From an uncultured Eubacteriales bacterium (GTDB taxonomy: Bacteria > Bacillota > Clostridia > Saccharofermentanales > Saccharofermentanaceae), in the NCBI GenBank assembly GCA_900317035.1, contig ONFC01000001.1, forward strand, positions 462 to 64,461: a DNA stretch of 64,000 nucleotides. Reading direction: 5' to 3'. The notes beneath the pieces were generated by a model. That model was given only the letters and a program-made list of their open reading frames with translations, was not told where the DNA came from and searched no databases. The translations under genes and the position numbers were made by a program. Positions 4,199 through 59,842 of this stretch are shown here, piece by piece (the stretch's first letter is position 1; each line of letters begins with the position of its first letter).

Positions 4199-4795
4199 AT
4201 GAGACAATACAAATCAGTTGGAACTGTTGAAAAAAGTATACATTCTCCCAGAACGCAGAGGAAGGAATACGGTTTTTATATTGCCTGTGATGACCGGGCG
4301 ATACTTAACTGTGTGAATGCAATGCTTTTAAGTCACGGGCTGGTGGGCCTGAGTGATACGGAAGGGAAGATCCATTATCTGATTGACGGCAGGAGAGGGA
4401 AGAATTATATCTTAGGACAGGTGAAAGAGAGAGTTCTTCCGCTGCGCGAGGCATCTCCGGAGAATTCTATGTATGAGGATGCGGTAACATACAGGGCGAT
4501 CGATACTGTAATCAGAAGATATGGCTTTCAGGAGACCCTTATGGGAACAAGGATCCTGCGTGTGTTGCTTTTCCGGCTGTATAAAGAACCGAAACTTCTT
4601 AAATGCGCGTCTAAAAGCCTGTATCCGCTGGCTCAGCCGGAGTTTCATATCACGGCTTCGCAAGTTGAGAGGAATCTTCGGTATGCGATAAGAAAAAGTA
4701 CGAGACTGAAGGAGAATACACGTGTGATCACAGTATTAAGGCTCCTTCTGGATGCAACGATGAGTGAAGTGGTGGATAAATATGGGAGAGCGTAA
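4199..4795 (+). CDS. Spo0A C-terminal (DNA-binding) domain protein lacking a receiver domain
   Basis: The segment ...SLYPLAQPEFHITASQVERNLRYAIRKS resembles the Spo0A_C signature (LYP..A....T...VER.IRHAI). No CheY-like N-terminus. I chose the ATG at 4199; the ORF track starts at a TTG at 4139. Confidence 0.6.
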   Translation: MRQYKSVGTVEKSIHSPRTQRKEYGFYIACDDRAILNCVNAMLLSHGLVGLSDTEGKIHYLIDGRRGKNYILGQVKERVLPLREASPENSMYEDAVTYRAIDTVIRRYGFQETLMGTRILRVLLFRLYKEPKLLKCASKSLYPLAQPEFHITASQVERNLRYAIRKSTRLKENTRVITVLRLLLDATMSEVVDKYGRA

Positions 4796-4796
4796 G

Positions 4797-4829
4797 TAAA
4801 AAAAGAGCTGCCTCATTGGAGACAGCTCT
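4797..4829 (-). terminator. rho-independent terminator of the HU gene
   Basis: Stem AGAGCTG/CAGCTCT (4804-4810/4823-4829). It is followed by a run of 7 T on the minus strand (the A-run 4797-4803 on plus). Confidence 0.6.
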
Positions 4830-4853
4830 CTAAAAGATCTTAATTAACAAAAA

Positions 4854-5138
4854 TTACTTCTTGTTGACCTTGTCCTTCAGACCCTTACCAGCCTTGAAAA
4901 CAGGAGCCTTGGAAGCAGGAATGGAGATAACTTCCTTTGTGCTCGGGTTTCTGCCCTTACGAGCTGCACGCTTCTTTGTCTCGAATGTACCGAAGCCAAC
5001 GAGAACTACTTTCTCCGGCTTCTTAGCAGCAAGTGCATCACCGATAGCATCGAGAGTAGCGTTGATAGCTGCCTCAGCCTGCTTCTTTGTCATGTTTGTC
5101 TTCTTTGCAACTGCATCAATAAGTTCTGATTTATTCAT
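4854..5138 (-). CDS. hup: HU family DNA-binding protein
   Basis: MNKSELIDAVAKKTNMTKKQAEAAINATLDAI...GFGTFE...R.GRNP.T is classic HU. The second ATG (5138) has better spacing to the AAGGAGG RBS than the ATG at 5144. Confidence 0.95.
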   Translation of the reverse strand: MNKSELIDAVAKKTNMTKKQAEAAINATLDAIGDALAAKKPEKVVLVGFGTFETKKRAARKGRNPSTKEVISIPASKAPVFKAGKGLKDKVNKK

Positions 5139-12322: not shown

Positions 12323-13834
12323 TTACTGGATATCTTTGCGGACGAATCCGTCATAAGCGATAAAAAGCAGTATGAAAGCAAGAACTGCCAGATAGCAAAG
12401 CGAGAAGGATAGTGGCAGGGAATTGCTGGATATTCCGAAAATTCCGGCTTCGTCTGATCCCGAGTACCCGCACAGATTTAAATACGGAAAGATCTTTCCT
12501 ACCAGGTCCATATGGGAAGATGGAAGGAAATCGATCCAGCGCTGGCGTCCGAAGATCTCTATCAGAAGAGGAGAGAGCCCGGAGGTCACGGCAAAACCTG
12601 TGGAAACGCCGACGGCAATTCCGGTATTTTTCGTAAGACATGAGATCGTAAACGCACCGAGAAGATATACGAAAAGAGAGATGTTATCCACCAGAAAGAA
12701 AAGAAAGGTAAAAATGTAATTGGGCATGACGTTTACTTTTCCGCCGGAACAGTAGTAGTAAGGCGAAAGTGAGGAAAACCCGTAACACATGCCGGTAGAT
12801 ATCGTGGAGAAAGCCGTGATCAGGATGCTTCCGAAAAGCGTCCATGTAATAAGCGCCATAAGTTTGGCAGTAAAGATCTTCCATCGCTTGACCGGAGCAA
12901 TGATCAGCGACTTGATCGATCCGGTCGCCATCTCCTGGGAGATGCTGGAGCCGGCGATAATGACCAGCATAATGATCAGGAGGAATCTTGCGCCTCTTTG
13001 ACCGAACTGTCTTGCCCGGGTCGCGTGAGCTGTCATATCAGGCGGGAGAGCATTGTTTTCGATCTGGTAATCCAGGATCTTTATCGAATCTTCAAGCTGC
13101 TTTCTTTTCTCTGCGTTGAGCGGCCGGTAGGAGTTGTTTTCTTCATACACTCCCATCTGAAGGTTGGACTTATAGTCATCACGCAGAATGATGGCGTTCG
13201 CGATCCGCTCAGCATCTTTCATGGTCATTTTACCTTCCGGATCCAGCGTTGCGAGTTGGCGGACGATATTCCTGTTAGCAAAGCCTGTCTTTTCGGACAG
13301 AGCTTCCAGAGACGCAAAATCATGGGAGAAGAGAGCCTCTTTGGCGAGATCCAGTGATTCGGTGGCTGAAGTGTACGCCTGAAACCAGTTGGAATCTCTT
13401 TTCCCGAATGGTTCCGTATTCAGTCTGCAGACAGATGAGTAAGCTGTAGTGTACTGTAAGTATGCACAGCTTGATAAATAAGTACCTTTGATCGGATACT
13501 CATCGAAATCATAGTTTGCCAGCAAAGCGTTGTAGCAGGAAAGCATAACATAACTACGGAGTGTCTCCTCATCCATATTGAGCCTTGTGGCAAAGAGCTC
13601 TGCAGTCACGTTCTGCATCGTGAATCGGAGAGTGGTGTGTTCAACATATCTGTTCGGATCCCCAAGATTGTTTTTCTCGGTATCTCTGGCTTTCGTGATC
13701 TCGGTTTTTCCGTAAGGTTCGTCCAGCGTTTCCTCAGAAAGATCTCTGTTTTGAAGGATCGGAGCGAAGAAAGCAGTGACCGTCATCAGGGCCACGAGGA
13801 TCCAGACAGAGAGCTTCCTTGAGAGCTTGGTCAT
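12323..13834 (-). CDS. ABC-2 type transporter permease
   Basis: N-terminal TM, a large (about 270-aa) external domain and 5 C-terminal TM helices. It lies downstream of the ABC ATPase. I chose the ATG at 13834 (MTKLSRKLSVWIL...); the upstream extension to 13993 overlaps the ATPase. Confidence 0.65.
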   Translation of the reverse strand: MTKLSRKLSVWILVALMTVTAFFAPILQNRDLSEETLDEPYGKTEITKARDTEKNNLGDPNRYVEHTTLRFTMQNVTAELFATRLNMDEETLRSYVMLSCYNALLANYDFDEYPIKGTYLSSCAYLQYTTAYSSVCRLNTEPFGKRDSNWFQAYTSATESLDLAKEALFSHDFASLEALSEKTGFANRNIVRQLATLDPEGKMTMKDAERIANAIILRDDYKSNLQMGVYEENNSYRPLNAEKRKQLEDSIKILDYQIENNALPPDMTAHATRARQFGQRGARFLLIIMLVIIAGSSISQEMATGSIKSLIIAPVKRWKIFTAKLMALITWTLFGSILITAFSTISTGMCYGFSSLSPYYYCSGGKVNVMPNYIFTFLFFLVDNISLFVYLLGAFTISCLTKNTGIAVGVSTGFAVTSGLSPLLIEIFGRQRWIDFLPSSHMDLVGKIFPYLNLCGYSGSDEAGIFGISSNSLPLSFSLCYLAVLAFILLFIAYDGFVRKDIQ

Positions 13835-13859
13835 TTCATTATGATATAGCGCAAATATC

Positions 13860-14831
13860 TTACTCAACCTGGATACCTCCTCCCGTGATCTCCAGGAAGA
13901 CATCCTCCAGGGAAGATTCGAGTTTCTGCACACCGAGAATATCAGAACCGCCGGATACAAGCGTTCTGACACATTCATTGATCTGCGTCTCATCTATATC
14001 GATATCCAGTGTATCGGCCCCGACATTTGAAATACGGTTCTTATAGGCTTCGGACAGGATCTCTTTTGCTTTAGAAGGATCGGAAGTTTTGATGCGGTAC
14101 ACAGAGGATGTCTGCGCTCTGTGCATCAGATCATCGATAGAACAGATCTGGAGAAGTTTTCCATGATTGATGATGCCGATCCGATCGCACATCAGCTGCA
14201 TCTCGGAAAGAAGATGGCTCGATACCATAACAGCGACTCCTTCTTCGTGCGCGAGTTTCTTTAGAATATCGCGGAGCTGGTGAATGCCGGCGGGATCAAG
14301 TCCGTTTGTCGGCTCGTCCAGGATAAGGACCTTCGGATGGTGAAGCATTGCCTGCGCCAGACCGATGCGCTGCTTCATGCCCAGGGAATACTTCTTCACC
14401 GGTTCATCTGCACGTTCGGAGAGACCTACAAGTTCGAGGACCTCATTGATCCTTTCGGGAGTGACGCCCTTGTGAAGGCGTGCGTACATCTTCAGGTTCA
14501 GACGGGCAGACAGCGTGTTATACATCTCCGGATTTTCGACGATGCCGCCGATCGAGGACATCGCTGCTTCATAGTGCGTCTTCCGGTTATATCCGTTTAT
14601 GATGATCGTTCCTTCATCCGGACGGAAAAAGCCCATGACCATCTTGATGATCGTGGTCTTTCCGGCTCCGTTAGGGCCGAGAAAACCGAATACTTCACCC
14701 GGGTACAGCTCAAAAGAGACATTGTCTACGGCGGTTTTTCTGCCGAATGTCTTAGTGACGTTCTGTATCTGTAGAGCAGGTTTTCTTTCGCTTGAGGTCA
14801 TTACGTTCTCCTTCGCCGGATCAAAATTCAT
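13860..14831 (-). CDS. ABC transporter ATP-binding protein
   Basis: Walker A GPNGAGKTT, signature YSLGMKQR, Walker B LILDEPTNGLD. An alternative start is at 14801. Confidence 0.92.
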   Translation of the reverse strand: MNFDPAKENVMTSSERKPALQIQNVTKTFGRKTAVDNVSFELYPGEVFGFLGPNGAGKTTIIKMVMGFFRPDEGTIIINGYNRKTHYEAAMSSIGGIVENPEMYNTLSARLNLKMYARLHKGVTPERINEVLELVGLSERADEPVKKYSLGMKQRIGLAQAMLHHPKVLILDEPTNGLDPAGIHQLRDILKKLAHEEGVAVMVSSHLLSEMQLMCDRIGIINHGKLLQICSIDDLMHRAQTSSVYRIKTSDPSKAKEILSEAYKNRISNVGADTLDIDIDETQINECVRTLVSGGSDILGVQKLESSLEDVFLEITGGGIQVE

Positions 14832-15402
14832 AGCCGGATTGTATGTTTAGATTCGACTTAGTCTGCACCAGTTTCCATTCTCCATCTGTATAGAGGAACT
14901 GAAGGTCGTCCTGTGTTGCAAGTTCTTCATATGTGATAGTGCCATCTTCGTTTATAAAGTCGATTTTAGTCGTCGAACGGACGACGACAGAAGCTGAACC
15001 GTTATATAGTTCAAGGATCTCGACACTTTCGGGAACCCTGGTGCATTTGTCAGGGCGCATCTTTAAAGAAGAATAATAACGGAAAAAGTCGAAAGACTGA
15101 TCGAAAGCCTGATTGCGGACCAGCTCATTATCTGCAAAGTAATGGGAAAGGGAGCCGGCCTGCGAATGGACCGCAGGAAGGAGAGTATCGGAATCGATGC
15201 TGTTCCAGGAAAAGAAATCAAAATCTGATGGAGCAATAAAAAGAGGAGAAGAGTCAATAATATACTGAGATGCGATCTCCTTTACTTCTTTTCTCTCCCT
15301 ACTGTTATGAATAGAATCAGACACAAGATAGGAGACAACAGCGATAATGACAGCAAGGAGGAGAATAATGCCTCTATTCACATGCTGCCACCATTTTTTC
15401 AT
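14821..15402 (-). CDS. hypothetical membrane-anchored protein (first gene of the ABC operon)
   Basis: 193 aa with a single N-terminal TM (GIILLLAVIIAVVSYLV). Its stop overlaps the ATPase start. Confidence 0.5.
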   Translation of the reverse strand: MKKWWQHVNRGIILLLAVIIAVVSYLVSDSIHNSRERKEVKEIASQYIIDSSPLFIAPSDFDFFSWNSIDSDTLLPAVHSQAGSLSHYFADNELVRNQAFDQSFDFFRYYSSLKMRPDKCTRVPESVEILELYNGSASVVVRSTTKIDFINEDGTITYEELATQDDLQFLYTDGEWKLVQTKSNLNIQSGYEF

Positions 15403-15697
15403 GCCGATTCCTCCTAAAAAAGTTAGGTATATTTTACCACACGAAAATCAGATGAAAAGTGACAGTGATGTCATAAGAAAATATGACGAAAATGTAAATA
15501 GTTCTAGGCGTTTTTCGGGAAAAACACTATCCCGGAACAGGTGATCCTTCTCCTCCGAAAACTCTCCGAAGATCCTCAAATACCTGAAATAACGGCATTC
15601 TTGTAATCGCTGTGTAATGTGCTGTAATAATCGCGTAACGTTTTGTGCAAGGTGCATAAATCGCAGAAAGATTTCGCGCGTTTCGTGATGAAAAGTG

Positions 15698-15725
15698 TTG
15701 ACAACACATTAATACATGTTATACT
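15698..15725 (+). promoter_or_regulatory. near-consensus sigma-A promoter with extended -10 driving the large RNA
   Basis: TTGACA (15698-15703), a 16-nt spacer, then TGtTATACT (15717-15725). Confidence 0.65.
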
Positions 15726-15731
15726 GAAACT

Positions 15732-16321
15732 AGCTCCAGGGAATGCGGGTTCACACCAAGTCCTAATCGGAGAGCCGCCAGCTACAGATGCACAAGGCGA
15801 GGCTGAGAAAAACCGAAAGACCAGAAAGTGGTCAGGAAACGAAGATGGAGATACCGGGAATCGGATCCAGTGAGGTTCGAGTGGTAAGGAAGTCGGAGCC
15901 GACAGAGCCATAGCAGAAGCAGTTGGAAAGCGAACAGCGATTGACGGTACGCGATGGCGGACACAAGTCGCAGGTCAGGTTGAAGACCATGGTTTCAGAT
16001 CCGGGCGGTAGCTGCTTGAGGTGGCAGGCCGGAGGAAGGGACCCAGGTGAAATGACAGGAGACGGGTCATAACTGAGTAAGTTACGATAGCCGGTTCGAC
16101 AGGGATGCAGTGGCACGGGGTCATTGCCGGATGGATGGATCGGAATAGTGATGGAAAAGAGGCCGCGTAGAACACATCATTTCAGGTCGGACTGGTTGGA
16201 AAGGGGCTTCGTAAGAGGCTTTGAGTAACTCCAAGAAGAGGGTGTTCAGCAGGATTGGGAAGGTTCGCAGATAATAAAGGGCGACCGAAGGAAATGGATG
16301 GAAAGTTGGTTCGCTGGAGCT
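15732..16321 (+). ncRNA. large (about 590 nt) structured stand-alone RNA, family unassigned (large ornate RNA or atypical RNase-P-like RNA candidate)
   Basis: About 970 bp with no credible ORF on either strand. Promoter just upstream. AGCTCCAG (15732-15739) is perfectly complementary to CTGGAGCT (16314-16321). Purine-rich sense strand with many local hairpins, including a GNRA loop. Terminator immediately downstream, and no downstream + strand gene. Confidence 0.6.
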
Positions 16322-16346
16322 TTTATTTGTCCTCATTTTACGTGCG

Positions 16347-16376
16347 CGGAGATCCGACAGGGTCTCCGTTTTCTTT
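16347..16376 (+). terminator. rho-independent terminator of the large RNA
   Basis: CGGAGATC / GGTCTCCG stem (16347-16354/16361-16368) followed by TTTTCTTT. T-tract only on the + strand. Confidence 0.55.
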
Positions 16377-16923
16377 AGTGTTCCATCTCTGCGATAAAGG
16401 GCAGGTTCCTTCCGTATTCCCCGGAATCCATACCGTATCCGATCAGCCAGGACCGGTCAACCTCGAATCCGTAGTATTTCACCGGAAGGTCGATGAGCTG
16501 GCGCTCCGGGTTGTAAAGGAGCGTGCATACCTCTACGGAAGCAGGACGCCTGGCCTCCAGAGTCTGGAGCAGATATGCGGTAGTAAGACCTGTGCGGATG
16601 ATGTCCTCCACGACGATCACATGCTTCCCGGTGATGTTGATGTCCAGATCTTTCGTGATCCTGACGATACCGGTGCTGCTGGTGGTATCCGGGATGCTGC
16701 CGATGGCGATCATGTCCATCTGCATAGGAAGATCGATGGCGCGCGCCAGGTCTGTGCAGAAGAAGAGCGAGCCCTTAAGAACACCGAGAAGTACGATCTC
16801 CTGTCCTTCATAGTCAGCTGTGATCTTCTTTCCGAGTTCCGCTATTCTTTCGCTCAGCTGCTGCTGCGTGTAAATGATCTTTTTATATGAGATCTTATTC
16901 AATCTGATCCCCCGCTTCCTCAT
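16375..16923 (-). CDS. hpt: hypoxanthine phosphoribosyltransferase
   Basis: 182 aa. PRPP-binding motif HVIVVEDIIRTGLT. LLGVLKGS.FF is typical of Hpt. Confidence 0.9.
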   Translation of the reverse strand: MRKRGIRLNKISYKKIIYTQQQLSERIAELGKKITADYEGQEIVLLGVLKGSLFFCTDLARAIDLPMQMDMIAIGSIPDTTSSTGIVRITKDLDINITGKHVIVVEDIIRTGLTTAYLLQTLEARRPASVEVCTLLYNPERQLIDLPVKYYGFEVDRSWLIGYGMDSGEYGRNLPFIAEMEH

Positions 16924-17872
16924 TGTTTTCCTGTGGACTGAAACTCTTCAGGCGTTCCGCCAGCTCGAGAAAATCCTTTTTATAGACGATCTTGATATTG
17001 GTTCCCGGATAGAGTTCCTTTACTTTTTTCAGTTTCTTATTCTTCTTTGTCACATATTTCTGGTTCATCGTCGTCAATTCGAGATACGTATCGAACCGCG
17101 TCAGATAAAAGTCCGGGCTGAAAGCCAGAGTGACGTTCCCTTCACTGTCCCATTCTACTGGGAATGTCTTCGGTTCATACTTCCAGTCGATATGGTACAT
17201 ATCCAGGATCTTCGCAAATTCCGCTTCGGACGGATTTTTAAAGACGGGAGTCTCGCTCTGATGATCCATCGATCCTTCAGATCTTGTTTCCGTCTTGATC
17301 CGGGCACGAAGCTCGTGCTCATGGAATGCAGCCAGGATCGAGGCTACGCATTCATCCACGGTAAGATGGTCTGTATTTAAGATCAGATGATAAAGAGAAA
17401 GATCGGAAAGGTCCTTTCCGAAGACGTGAGACACGAAGCGCTTATGTTTTCTGTCGGCGGATGCTAAAAGAGCATCGGAAGCTTCACCGGACAGGTGATA
17501 GTGCTTTTCGATACGGGAAAGCCGGGTGGAATCGGAAGCCACGATGCGTACATGCAGCGCGTCATCACTTTCCGATAAAAGAAGCTGGGATCCGAATCCG
17601 AGAAGGACGGCGGAAGATTCCTTCGACATAGAAAGAAGAGAATCATAAAGTACATCTTTGAAGCTTTTTCCGTCTTTATACTCAGATAAATAGAATTTCG
17701 CACTTTCTGCCAGGCGGGAACGCTGCTCCGGCTGGATATCCGGGAAGAAACGCTCCATCAGAAGATCTCGCGTGATGAGCTCCCAGCCGAGTTTGCTGGA
17801 AAGGACGGAAGCGATCTCGTCGCCTAAACTGCCCATCTGTCGTGAAATCGTAATGACCGGCATAAAACTCAA
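16895..17872 (-). CDS. cytidylate-kinase-like (AAA/P-loop-like) family protein with an extra C-terminal domain
   Basis: The N-terminus MPVITISRQMGSLGDEIA..L...LGW.. is typical of the cytidylate kinase-like family. The C-terminal 120 or so aa (YEPKTFPVEWDSEGNVTLAFSPDFYL...YLELTT) is unassigned. Confidence 0.6.
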   Translation of the reverse strand: MSFMPVITISRQMGSLGDEIASVLSSKLGWELITRDLLMERFFPDIQPEQRSRLAESAKFYLSEYKDGKSFKDVLYDSLLSMSKESSAVLLGFGSQLLLSESDDALHVRIVASDSTRLSRIEKHYHLSGEASDALLASADRKHKRFVSHVFGKDLSDLSLYHLILNTDHLTVDECVASILAAFHEHELRARIKTETRSEGSMDHQSETPVFKNPSEAEFAKILDMYHIDWKYEPKTFPVEWDSEGNVTLAFSPDFYLTRFDTYLELTTMNQKYVTKKNKKLKKVKELYPGTNIKIVYKKDFLELAERLKSFSPQENNEEAGDQIE

Positions 17873-17878
17873 TCTCCT

Positions 17879-18259
17879 TTACTTTTTCCGGCGGGTAAGC
17901 TTGCCGAAATCATTTACGACGTACATCTCGGCAAAGGCCGGGTTGATCTTCGCGATCTCATCATAAGAAGCTCTGCCGTCATTGACATAGTTATAGGCAA
18001 CGATAGGATTGGTACGGATCTTTTTCCGGAAATCATTCTTCGCGATGACCGAACCTACCTTTTGGCCGAGGACAAAGTAGAAGATAATAGCGGCTACGAT
18101 GCAAAGAATGCCGGTCAGGACACTCCAGGAGCCGAGTTTCCCGGCCAATACGAAAAACACAATGGCCGCGATCGAAAGACCGTAAGCGATAAGGTCCATC
18201 AGGATCGCAAAAAAGGTTGCTTTGTTGGAATACTCGAAAGATGTAAAGAAAAAGATCAT
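17879..18259 (-). CDS. hypothetical small membrane protein
   Basis: 126 aa with two or three TM helices and a basic C-terminus. Confidence 0.45.
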   Translation of the reverse strand: MIFFFTSFEYSNKATFFAILMDLIAYGLSIAAIVFFVLAGKLGSWSVLTGILCIVAAIIFYFVLGQKVGSVIAKNDFRKKIRTNPIVAYNYVNDGRASYDEIAKINPAFAEMYVVNDFGKLTRRKK

Positions 18260-24967: not shown

Positions 24968-25043
24968 GGAAGATTAGCTCAGCTGGGAGAGCACCTGCCT
25001 TACAAGCAGGGGGTCACAGGTTCGAGCCCTGTATCTTCCACCA
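24968..25043 (+). tRNA. tRNA-Val (anticodon TAC)
   Basis: Manual cloverleaf: acceptor GGAAGAT/ATCTTCC, anticodon arm CCTGC-CTTACAA-GCAGG, T arm ACAGG-TTCGAGC-CCTGT, encoded CCA. Confidence 0.95.
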
Positions 25044-25047
25044 ATAT

Positions 25048-25125
25048 GGCGCAGTAGTTCAGCTTGGTTAGAATGCCAGCCTGTCACGCTGGAGGTCGAG
25101 GGTTCGAGCCCCTTCTGCGTCGCCA
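25048..25125 (+). tRNA. tRNA-Asp (anticodon GTC)
   Basis: Acceptor GGCGCAG/CTGCGTC, anticodon arm CCAGC-CTGTCAC-GCTGG, T arm GAGGG-TTCGAGC-CCCTT, encoded CCA. Confidence 0.93.
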
Positions 25126-25159
25126 AGATGATCGGTCCATATCGGACCGATTATCATTT

Positions 25160-25235
25160 GCCCAGATAGCTCAGTCGGTAGAGCAGGGGACTGAAAATCC
25201 CCGTGTCGTTGGTTCGATTCCGACTCTGGGCACCA
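25160..25235 (+). tRNA. tRNA-Phe (anticodon GAA)
   Basis: Acceptor GCCCAGA/TCTGGGC, anticodon arm GGGGA-CTGAAAA-TCCCC, T arm GTTGG-TTCGATT-CCGAC, encoded CCA. Confidence 0.95.
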
Positions 25236-59759: not shown

Positions 59760-59842
59760 GCGGCGGTGGCGGAATTGGCAGACGCGCACGTTTGAGGGGC
59801 GTGTGGGCGACCATACGGGTTCAAGTCCCGTTCGCCGCACCA
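59760..59842 (+). tRNA. tRNA-Leu (anticodon GAG)
   Basis: Acceptor GCGGCGG/TCGCCGC, anticodon arm CACGT-TTGAGGG-GCGTG, variable arm TGG-GCGA-CCA, T arm ACGGG-TTCAAGT-CCCGT, encoded CCA. Confidence 0.9.

Follow-up and report, generated by a model that had tools for sequence, protein, structure and literature searches.

What occupies the long gap between hpt and the neighbouring transporter genes in an uncultured Eubacteriales bacterium? The window analysed here is a stretch of 64,000 nt from contig ONFC01000001.1 (GenBank assembly GCA_900317035.1). Within it, a gap of 972 bp separates hpt (16375-16923, minus strand), whose product matched HGPRTase in Pfam and NCBIfam, from the first gene (14821-15402, minus strand) of an ABC-2 transporter operon. 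An earlier note on the window had proposed that this gap holds a stand-alone gene for a structured RNA, free of open reading frames (ORFs) and of unassigned family. Gene signals, negative Rfam searches and covariation among relatives all supported the proposal. We consider it probable that the hpt-adjacent locus encodes a large structured non-coding RNA of a kind not classified before, which we propose to act in trans.

The signals of the predicted gene lie on the plus strand. A sigma-70-type promoter (15698-15725) comprises TTGACA (15698-15703), a 16-nt spacer and a TG-extended TATACT, and matches 11 of the 12 consensus positions. The structured RNA body (15732-16321) is bounded by the outermost bases of its closing helix and has a length of about 590 nt. 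This 8-bp helix, P1, is formed by AGCTCCAG (15732-15739) and the complementary CTGGAGCT (16314-16321). A 3' tail with the conserved UUUAUUUGUCCUCA and an intrinsic terminator follow (16322-16376); the terminator has a G+C-rich stem of 10 bp (16346-16369) and then TTTTCTTT, and the hpt stop codon adjoins it at 16375. The promoter, the perfectly complementary ends and the terminator had been described in the earlier note and were all confirmed, as were the longest ORF of 111 aa in the gap, the purine-rich plus strand (65% purine) and two recurring words (GTTGGAAAG at 15922 and 16195; ATGGATGGA at 16131 and 16294). Folding of the plus strand gave −216.7 kcal/mol (z = −3.5 relative to dinucleotide-preserving shuffles), and the complementary strand did not fold better than its shuffles (z = −1.0). 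The signals predict discrete plus-strand transcription from the locus's own near-consensus promoter to its own intrinsic terminator.

The same signals were found in relatives, all of which keep TTGAC(A) and TGnTATA(C/A)T at a constant distance of 6-7 nt from a conserved AGCUCC. Every relative has a hairpin and U-tract 20-60 nt past the conserved 3' end, and the terminator stems differ between clades, with unrelated sequences (GCGGAGAUCC.., GGGACGGUUGC.., AAGGUGGUUUC.., AGAAGCGGCC.., GUGCCCGC..). Since more than 40 relatives conserve the promoter, both ends and the terminator, these features of the locus go far beyond chance. The tail segment 16322-16345 (UUUAUUUGUCCUCA) is conserved in long forms of the RNA, and a small GUCCC..GGGAC hairpin takes its place in forms of 426-429 nt. 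The hairpin shared by the RNA gene and hpt in the window (16346-16377) has a U-tract in the RNA direction only; hpt itself lacks a separate terminator in the window. Several other clades have A- and U-tracts on either side of the terminator hairpin, which there looks bidirectional.

Relatives were reached through hpt, and the comparison covered 64 kb of the genome studied here and stretches of about 1-14 kb from relatives. The exact hpt protein of the window was present on many rumen metagenome contigs; their gap is 99.6-99.9% identical to that of the window, which assigns them to the same species. Homologues of hpt with identities from 90% down to 64% led to contigs that all had an ORF-free gap of 740-1010 bp after hpt, homologous to that of the window. 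Alignment of these relatives revealed a conserved promoter, 5' end (AGCUCCAGGGAAU), 3' end (GGUUCGCUGGAGC) and terminator, and an invariant central block. A search pattern built from this block, with the inner hairpin left free, matched 30 species-level metagenome-assembled genomes (MAGs), one copy each, in a collection holding one genome per species. All 30 are uncultured and assigned to Clostridiales, 'Oscillospiraceae', 'Mageeibacillus sp. UBA' or 'Clostridiaceae'; they came from rumen, omasum, reticulum, duodenum and anaerobic digesters. Another 26 metagenome contigs of the same clades were matched by a complementary pattern. From the genome and metagenome matches, 44 distinct full-length RNA sequences were assembled, a set that excludes clade D. 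This deep and more divergent clade was missed by the exact search patterns and was reached through hpt homologues of 59-62% identity, among them that of a Saccharofermentans sp. MAG. Its RNAs (558-624 nt) carry the end motifs, helix J and the core of the family, with one-base variants in the end motifs and in the core. The window and all 44 sequences share the hallmarks of the family, which are the terminal stem with 5' AGCUCCAGGGAAU and 3' GGUUCGCUGGAGC, the CCGCC...AAAGGG helix J and the GCGAUUGAMGG-hairpin-ACAAGUCGC core. The earlier note had made its reading depend on conservation and covariation in relatives, and homologues with compensatory changes were found in the 30 MAGs and 26 metagenome contigs. 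As judged from these alignments, the predicted RNA is a conserved single-copy element of a lineage of uncultured Clostridia that come from rumen and anaerobic digesters and have Saccharofermentans and Mageeibacillus as relatives. At one locus (L088, hpt 60% identical), nhmmer found no RNA homologue after hpt, where 332 bp (4535-4866) are followed by a P-type ATPase gene; this locus marks a boundary of the synteny or of the RNA family.

Nine contigs (L057, L065, L066, L067, L070, L072, L074, L079 and L081) begin or end inside the RNA near its invariant core, as is also seen at rRNA genes. The core is probably identical among co-occurring species and breaks assemblies there; such breaks would often leave the RNA absent or truncated in MAGs.

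A decayed protein gene or a gene for a small protein might account for such conservation. The minus strand has stop-free stretches of 80-160 codons and the plus strand is purine-rich, and one pipeline called genes of 44 to 157 aa in two loci (L014 and L023). Open stretches of this length are as expected for a pyrimidine-rich strand; the frame and position of the longest one shift between relatives, and at most loci no gene was called in the gap. Comparison of the window with ten relatives revealed mismatches without 3-base phase (p = 0.14-0.99), and variable columns were distributed evenly over the codon positions (132/130/137). Only 12 of 95 indels in nine pairwise comparisons were multiples of three. 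Most indels were 1-2 nt in size, and the large length differences were 42, 75, 99 and 190 nt. The absence of codon phase and the 1-2 nt indels led us to drop the coding or pseudogene reading, to which we assign almost no probability, and the pattern of conservation is accounted for by compensatory base-pair changes.

To describe the fold, a partial model was set on a MAFFT alignment of the 44 sequences; it comprises 111 pairs in 24 helices, all of them nested. Standard pairs made up 89.8% of the cells of the model, as against 24-48% when the 3' partners were slid by 1-3 columns. Changes on both sides were found at 42 pairs and in 194 cells, compared with 29.4±2.6 pairs and 70.8±6.8 cells in shuffles, and none of 500 shuffles reached the observed values. 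An independent RNAalifold run on the same alignment recovered P1, P2, helices X and Y, both core helices, part of the hairpin at 15861-80 and the hairpin at 16052/16070. It also added extensions of the terminal stem at 15746-48 / 16306-08 and 15751-52 / 16301-02, with 11-17 double-sided changes. No pseudoknots were established in the 44-sequence model. Mutual information with average product correction, calculated over every pair of columns, mostly reflected clade splits and was of no use for helix finding. On the global alignment, a strict automatic helix finder failed to detect the variable hairpins, as these are misaligned by MAFFT.

The most conserved part of the RNA is a core module (15936-15972, plus strand) in which a helix GCGAU/GUCGC surrounds the internal loop UGACGGUA / GACACAA and a hairpin CGC-GAUG-GCG. 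Its sequence (AGCGAUUGACGGUACGCGAUGGCGGACACAAGUCGCA) is nearly invariant in all 44 sequences of the alignment, a set over which the identity of hpt proteins falls to 62%. Near-invariance extends to the hairpin stem and to base 15949 of the internal loop, both left free in the first search pattern. Clade D keeps the flanking helix and ACAAGUCGC, and its hairpin is swapped in a compensatory manner to ACGG-GCGA-CCGU or GUGG-GUUU-CCAC. Invariance of the core, together with this swap of the hairpin in clade D, makes the asymmetric internal loop (UGACGGUA opposite GACACAA) the best candidate for a functional site. The 35-nt internal-loop module is thus probably the functional site of the RNA.

Around this module the fold is built from an irregular terminal stem, two long-range helices and several arms, all on the plus strand. 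The 5' strand of the terminal stem (15732-15758) consists of P1 (15732-39), P2 (15741-44), the extensions at 15746-48 and 15751-52 and helix K (15756-58). Its 3' strand (16295-16321) consists of helix K (16295-97), the extensions at 16301-02 and 16306-08, P2 (16309-12) and P1 (16314-21). P1 never covaries; its sole variants are changes of G-C to G-U or U-G (L030, L075 and clade D), by which pairing is preserved. Helix K changes from CCA/UGG to CCG/CGG, and its pair 15758/16295 is AU in 30 sequences and GC in 7. Hairpin Hb follows (15761-15771, UCC-UAAUC-GGA), with a UA to CG change and with the form UUCG-GACA-CGAG in clade D. Long-range helix J pairs aGCC (15773-15776) with GGCg (16280-16283), the latter within a conserved AAAGGGC..CCG block, and closes a three-way junction. 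Covariation supports helix J: its pair 15774/16282 is GC in 39 sequences and AU in 4, and the neighbouring pair is found as U:A, A:U or G:U.

The first branch of the junction is arm X (15778-15926). It has a closing helix (15778-82 / 15922-26), further helices inside this and two hairpins (15819-33 and 15861-80). Within the arm, pair 15790/15914 is GC in 23 sequences and AU in 14, and hairpin 15861-80 has covariation at five of its seven pairs. Arm X is reduced to about 70 nt in the short form S2. The second branch begins with long-range helix Y, in which GCGAAC (15930-15935) pairs with GUUCGC (16263-16268), the 3' strand being followed by the conserved AGAUAAUAAAGGG. The pair 15935/16263 is CG in 32 sequences and UA in 12, and clade D, with ACGAGC/GCUCGU, contributes two further compensatory pairs. 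Inside helix Y lie the invariant module, one small hairpin, a pair of optional arms and arm W/V. The two optional arms (15989-16183, about 195 nt) have covarying inner helices, and in hairpin 16107-27 five of six pairs covary. This whole segment is absent from the form of 402-404 nt and partly missing in that of 553 nt; in the form of 426-429 nt arm X and the middle arm are both shortened. Arm W/V (16185-16256) has a conserved internal loop of UGGAAAG and GAGUAA and a variable terminal hairpin (16203-16222). The length classes are 583-610, 553, 426-429 and 402-404 nt, with 558-624 nt in clade D, and the overall range of 402-624 nt results from whole arms being optional. Pairing of the invariant UGACGG with CCGUCA of arm X was rejected as a universal element, arm X being truncated in short forms.

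Four small hairpins named in the earlier note fared differently. Hairpin 15819-15833 was supported by compensatory AU to GC changes in 6 sequences. Hairpin 16052-16070 was recovered by RNAalifold and has 4 GC compensations, set against 5 A·C mismatches. The hairpin at 16205-16220 is kept as a hairpin with a sequence that differs between clades, a region that MAFFT aligns poorly. Hairpin 16070-16084 changes from UA to CG in 7 sequences; however, it competes with the covarying GUUAC/GUGAU helix (16081-85 / 16148-52).

The word pair GAGUAA / GGAAA(A)G occurs twice across helix junctions (16075-16080 with 16153-16159, and 16223-16228 with 16198-16203). This recurrence suggests a repeated internal-loop module, which is possibly loop-E-like.

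We also considered a CsrB-like sponge that sequesters a GGA-binding regulator such as CsrA. The RNA is purine-rich, contains 28 GGA triplets and repeats the words AUGGAUGGA and UGGAAAG. Such triplets are nevertheless not enriched (28 versus 23.4±3.3 in dinucleotide-preserving shuffles), and we dropped the idea for this reason. Many of the GGA sites lie within conserved helices and not in hairpin loops. Sponges, moreover, have repetitive and loosely conserved hairpins, without an invariant unique core and long-range helices. A sponge is in our judgement very unlikely.

The structured RNA was then compared with known families. At gathering thresholds, cmscan of the 64-kb window against Rfam 15 detected four tRNAs only. 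With permissive filters and E ≤ 10, region 15400-16500 gave only chance matches (a CRISPR repeat, a microRNA, and RybB over the terminator). Five architectures were scanned against Rfam, namely the window and relatives of 404, 429, 558 and 624 nt. No family was matched at E ≤ 10 by L025 (429 nt), L013 (404 nt) or the clade D members L086 and L084, and the chance-level matches across the five members were a CRISPR repeat, small nucleolar RNAs, twister-sister at 14 bits and similar. ARAGORN found neither tRNA nor tmRNA in 15400-16500, and there was no Rfam match to tmRNA. Group I and group II introns were likewise unmatched in Rfam by the window region, L025 and L013. With a promoter 6-7 nt upstream and a terminator about 25 nt downstream, the locus leaves no room for exons and so is not intron-like. 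No description of the RNA was found in full-text literature, core-sequence searches included, within a searchable literature that is incomplete.

The earlier note had also pointed to RNase P, and a highly divergent or expanded rnpB, or an RNA derived from RNase P, deserves consideration. RNase P RNA (RF00010, RF00011) resembles the new RNA in its paired 5' and 3' ends, a core size near 400 nt, a hairpin and then a long-range helix close to the 5' end, a strong promoter and a single copy per genome. The short forms (402-429 nt) fall within the size range of rnpB, and the earlier note had listed short sequence resemblances. However, RNaseP_bact_a and RNaseP_bact_b scored nothing at E ≤ 10 on all five architectures, the short ones included. 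The relatives scanned lack the long insertions that could have masked a match, and they were negative too. A full-length match to RF00010 or RF00011, by which the locus would be simply a housekeeping rnpB, was thus not found. The resembling stretches (from 15886, at 16001-16021, and from 16047 and 16090) sit in arm X or, for the most part, in the optional arms; they are missing or replaced in short forms, or unconserved among long ones. RNase P RNA has universal regions, a GGAAAGUCC-type conserved region I (CR-I) and an ACAGAA..GGCUUA-type conserved region V (CR-V), which form the P4 pseudoknot in the catalytic core. Neither a GGAAAGUCC-type CR-I motif nor an ACAGAA-type CR-V motif was found in the columns invariant across the 44 sequences. 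Helix J is nested in the model, whereas P4 is pseudoknotted relative to P2. The new family is also confined to one lineage, whereas rnpB is universal. That the RNA is an rnpB, or derived from one, is hence highly improbable in our view.

The suggestion of ROOL or OLE made in the earlier note did not hold either. The ROOL, OLE, GOLLD and raiA models gave no match at E ≤ 10, and only the loose label of a large ornate RNA survives. ROOL and GOLLD share with the new RNA many covarying arms and an association with the rumen, and ROOL also its size class. They are located in phages or prophages, often near tRNA genes. By contrast, the new RNA was not found in phages, prophages or plasmids or near tRNA clusters, and lies in a housekeeping context with one copy per genome. 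The wider proposal of an ornate RNA of a mobile element or phage, or of an RNA that serves a neighbouring enzyme as guide or partner (such as omega RNA, a retron or bridge RNA), can draw on the ROOL size class, the rumen habitat and one IMG/VR contig that holds a fragment of the RNA. Against this, ROOL, GOLLD and HEARO models were unmatched, low-stringency blastn against 50,697 phage records and 72,556 plasmids found no match, and the housekeeping flanks contain no reverse transcriptase, recombinase, nuclease or phage genes. The IMG/VR contig (L057, IMGVR_UViG_3300020072_000089, match at 4618-4718) was the single match in the viral collection. It is a 4.7-kb fragment that ends inside the RNA; metagenome contig Ga0180031_1083478 (L081) is equal to it in length and carries the RNA match at the same coordinates, and the viral assignment is therefore doubtful. 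A mobile or guide RNA has, in our estimate, very little probability.

The raiA motif and other orphan non-coding RNAs of Firmicutes are similar in being stand-alone structured RNAs with their own promoter and terminator. The raiA RNA is roughly 200 nt long. The new RNA differs in being unmatched in Rfam, about 2-3 times larger and of another architecture. By these sequence and structure comparisons we rate it as a new RNA family, predicted to stand outside OLE, ROOL, GOLLD, raiA, RNase P, tmRNA and the other Rfam families.

An hpt-like gene was included in 27 of 28 tabulated genome loci, and in all 27 the RNA gene is convergent with it and lies immediately downstream. This order held at hpt identities from 62% to 98%, and the flank opposite hpt varies (ABC operon, MscS or YjbQ). 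In all 27 loci the RNA has an intrinsic terminator behind it and then the convergent hpt, in agreement with the view of the earlier note that the element is neither a leader nor a riboswitch. At the window and in the relatives, the RNA does not lie in the 5' untranslated region of a same-strand gene.

Such strict synteny could also mean that the element acts in cis on hpt, with a convergent transcript that controls hpt by interference or as an antisense to read-through mRNA, or that merely supplies the hpt terminator. That the RNA directly follows hpt, in convergent orientation, wherever hpt is part of the locus is consistent with this. The RNA terminator abuts the hpt stop codon; without a U-tract in the hpt direction, hpt transcripts of the window may read into the RNA gene, and the terminator of other clades looks bidirectional. 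Antisense or interference could, however, operate without an invariant 35-nt internal-loop module and 400-600 nt of covarying helices. The strongest conservation lies far from hpt, at 15936-15972, and the arms on the hpt side are dispensable. The synteny itself may have been passively inherited within one lineage. We regard a purely cis-linked element as unlikely. It is possible that a cis-antisense role at hpt exists as an added function, and the conserved fold is not explained by such a role.

A large RNA acting in trans is the reading that we prefer. In the folded model, the irregular long terminal stem joins the ends of the RNA and leads, by way of a side hairpin and helix J, to a junction of two domains. 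The second domain carries the invariant 35-nt module, with its asymmetric purine-rich internal loop, and several arms, some of them dispensable. Folded in this way, the RNA would most likely act in trans as the RNA subunit or scaffold of a ribonucleoprotein (RNP), or as an RNA-only assembly, like OLE and other large RNAs of bacteria. The internal-loop module and the junction may form a binding or catalytic site, and the variable arms may be structural decoration. A catalytic role is possible but not likely. More specifically, the RNA might be a new class of large RNA with its own biochemical activity, either as a ribozyme or as the core of an unknown RNP or RNA-only assembly, with 15936-15972 as the active or binding site; this we put forward tentatively and rather doubt.

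Several points weigh against a trans-acting RNA. The transcript and its ends are deduced from sequence signals only, and the function of the RNA is wholly inferred. Perhaps 6-8 independent lineages are covered by the 44 sequences, so the cell counts overstate the number of covariation events, and the helices were chosen after inspection of the alignment. Pairings compete in several arms; for example, the 16052/16070 hairpin is an alternative to the inner half of helix 16049-54 / 16178-83. Strict hpt synteny could point to a local, cis-linked role. No candidate RNA partner emerged from the neighbouring genes, namely hpt, ABC or MscS genes and those for a small membrane protein and a cytidylate-kinase-like protein.

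OLE RNA (RF01071) is probably the closest analogue for how the new RNA may work, as an RNP or an RNA assembly. Both are ornate multi-arm RNAs of about 600 nt, present in single copy on the chromosomes of anaerobic Firmicutes/Clostridia in a fixed neighbourhood. Both are transcripts of their own rather than leaders, with a function that is not deducible from sequence. They differ in that no sequence or structure match was found at E ≤ 10 and that the new RNA has an hpt neighbourhood and a much narrower taxonomic range. OLE has a partner protein of the oapA type, and no plausible gene for a partner protein was recognised beside the new RNA.

To our knowledge, few large (>400 nt) and intricately folded bacterial RNAs are known besides rRNA, RNase P RNA, tmRNA and introns. 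OLE, GOLLD, ROOL and raiA each opened unexpected biology. The predicted locus is a well-delimited gene, and at least 44 natural variants in four size classes already reveal which arms are dispensable. Its invariant core is an obvious target for functional and structural work. RNA-only multimeric assemblies have been described among large bacterial RNAs (PMC12286853). If the RNA does belong to a new class, the reason that it went unnoticed would be that its hosts are represented almost exclusively by MAGs from rumen and digesters. Lineages represented only by MAGs still hide conserved housekeeping-type RNAs that are left blank by family-based annotation such as Rfam.

Upstream of the promoter, further conserved boxes were read from the alignments. 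An imperfect palindrome TGTGCA-N3-TGCAtA (15644-15658, plus strand) is centred about 81 bp upstream of the RNA start, with the general form TGTGCA-N3-TGCA(C/T)A across clades. Its TGCACAA half-site is kept about 75-81 bp upstream of the RNA start in all clades, including the most divergent (about 75 nt in L084/L086). Tandem TTTCGC / TTTCGTG boxes upstream of the −35 element (15672-15687, plus strand) are conserved in long-form clades only. Inspection of the boxes by eye for Spo0A-, PurR- or Crp-like identity gave nothing convincing. Judged by its conservation, the TGCACAA palindrome is probably an operator for a transcription factor, and a factor that binds this box at about −80 would probably control expression of the RNA.

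On the other side of the locus, in the window (16895-18259, minus strand) and in homologous loci, genes for a 126-aa membrane protein, a 325-aa cytidylate-kinase-like protein and hpt occur together in many species. The cytidylate-kinase-like protein belongs to PF13189 with an extra C-terminal part, and its gene is next to hpt in all loci examined. The RNAs of the window that Rfam recognised are a cluster of three tRNAs (24968-25232) and one further tRNA (59760-59839). Within the transporter operon, the listed ORFs of the ABC ATPase (13860-14831) and of the permease (12323-13993) overlap by 134 nt (13860-13993). Related loci call a later start for the permease (503 aa versus 556 aa), and the mechanical ORF start is therefore probably too far upstream.

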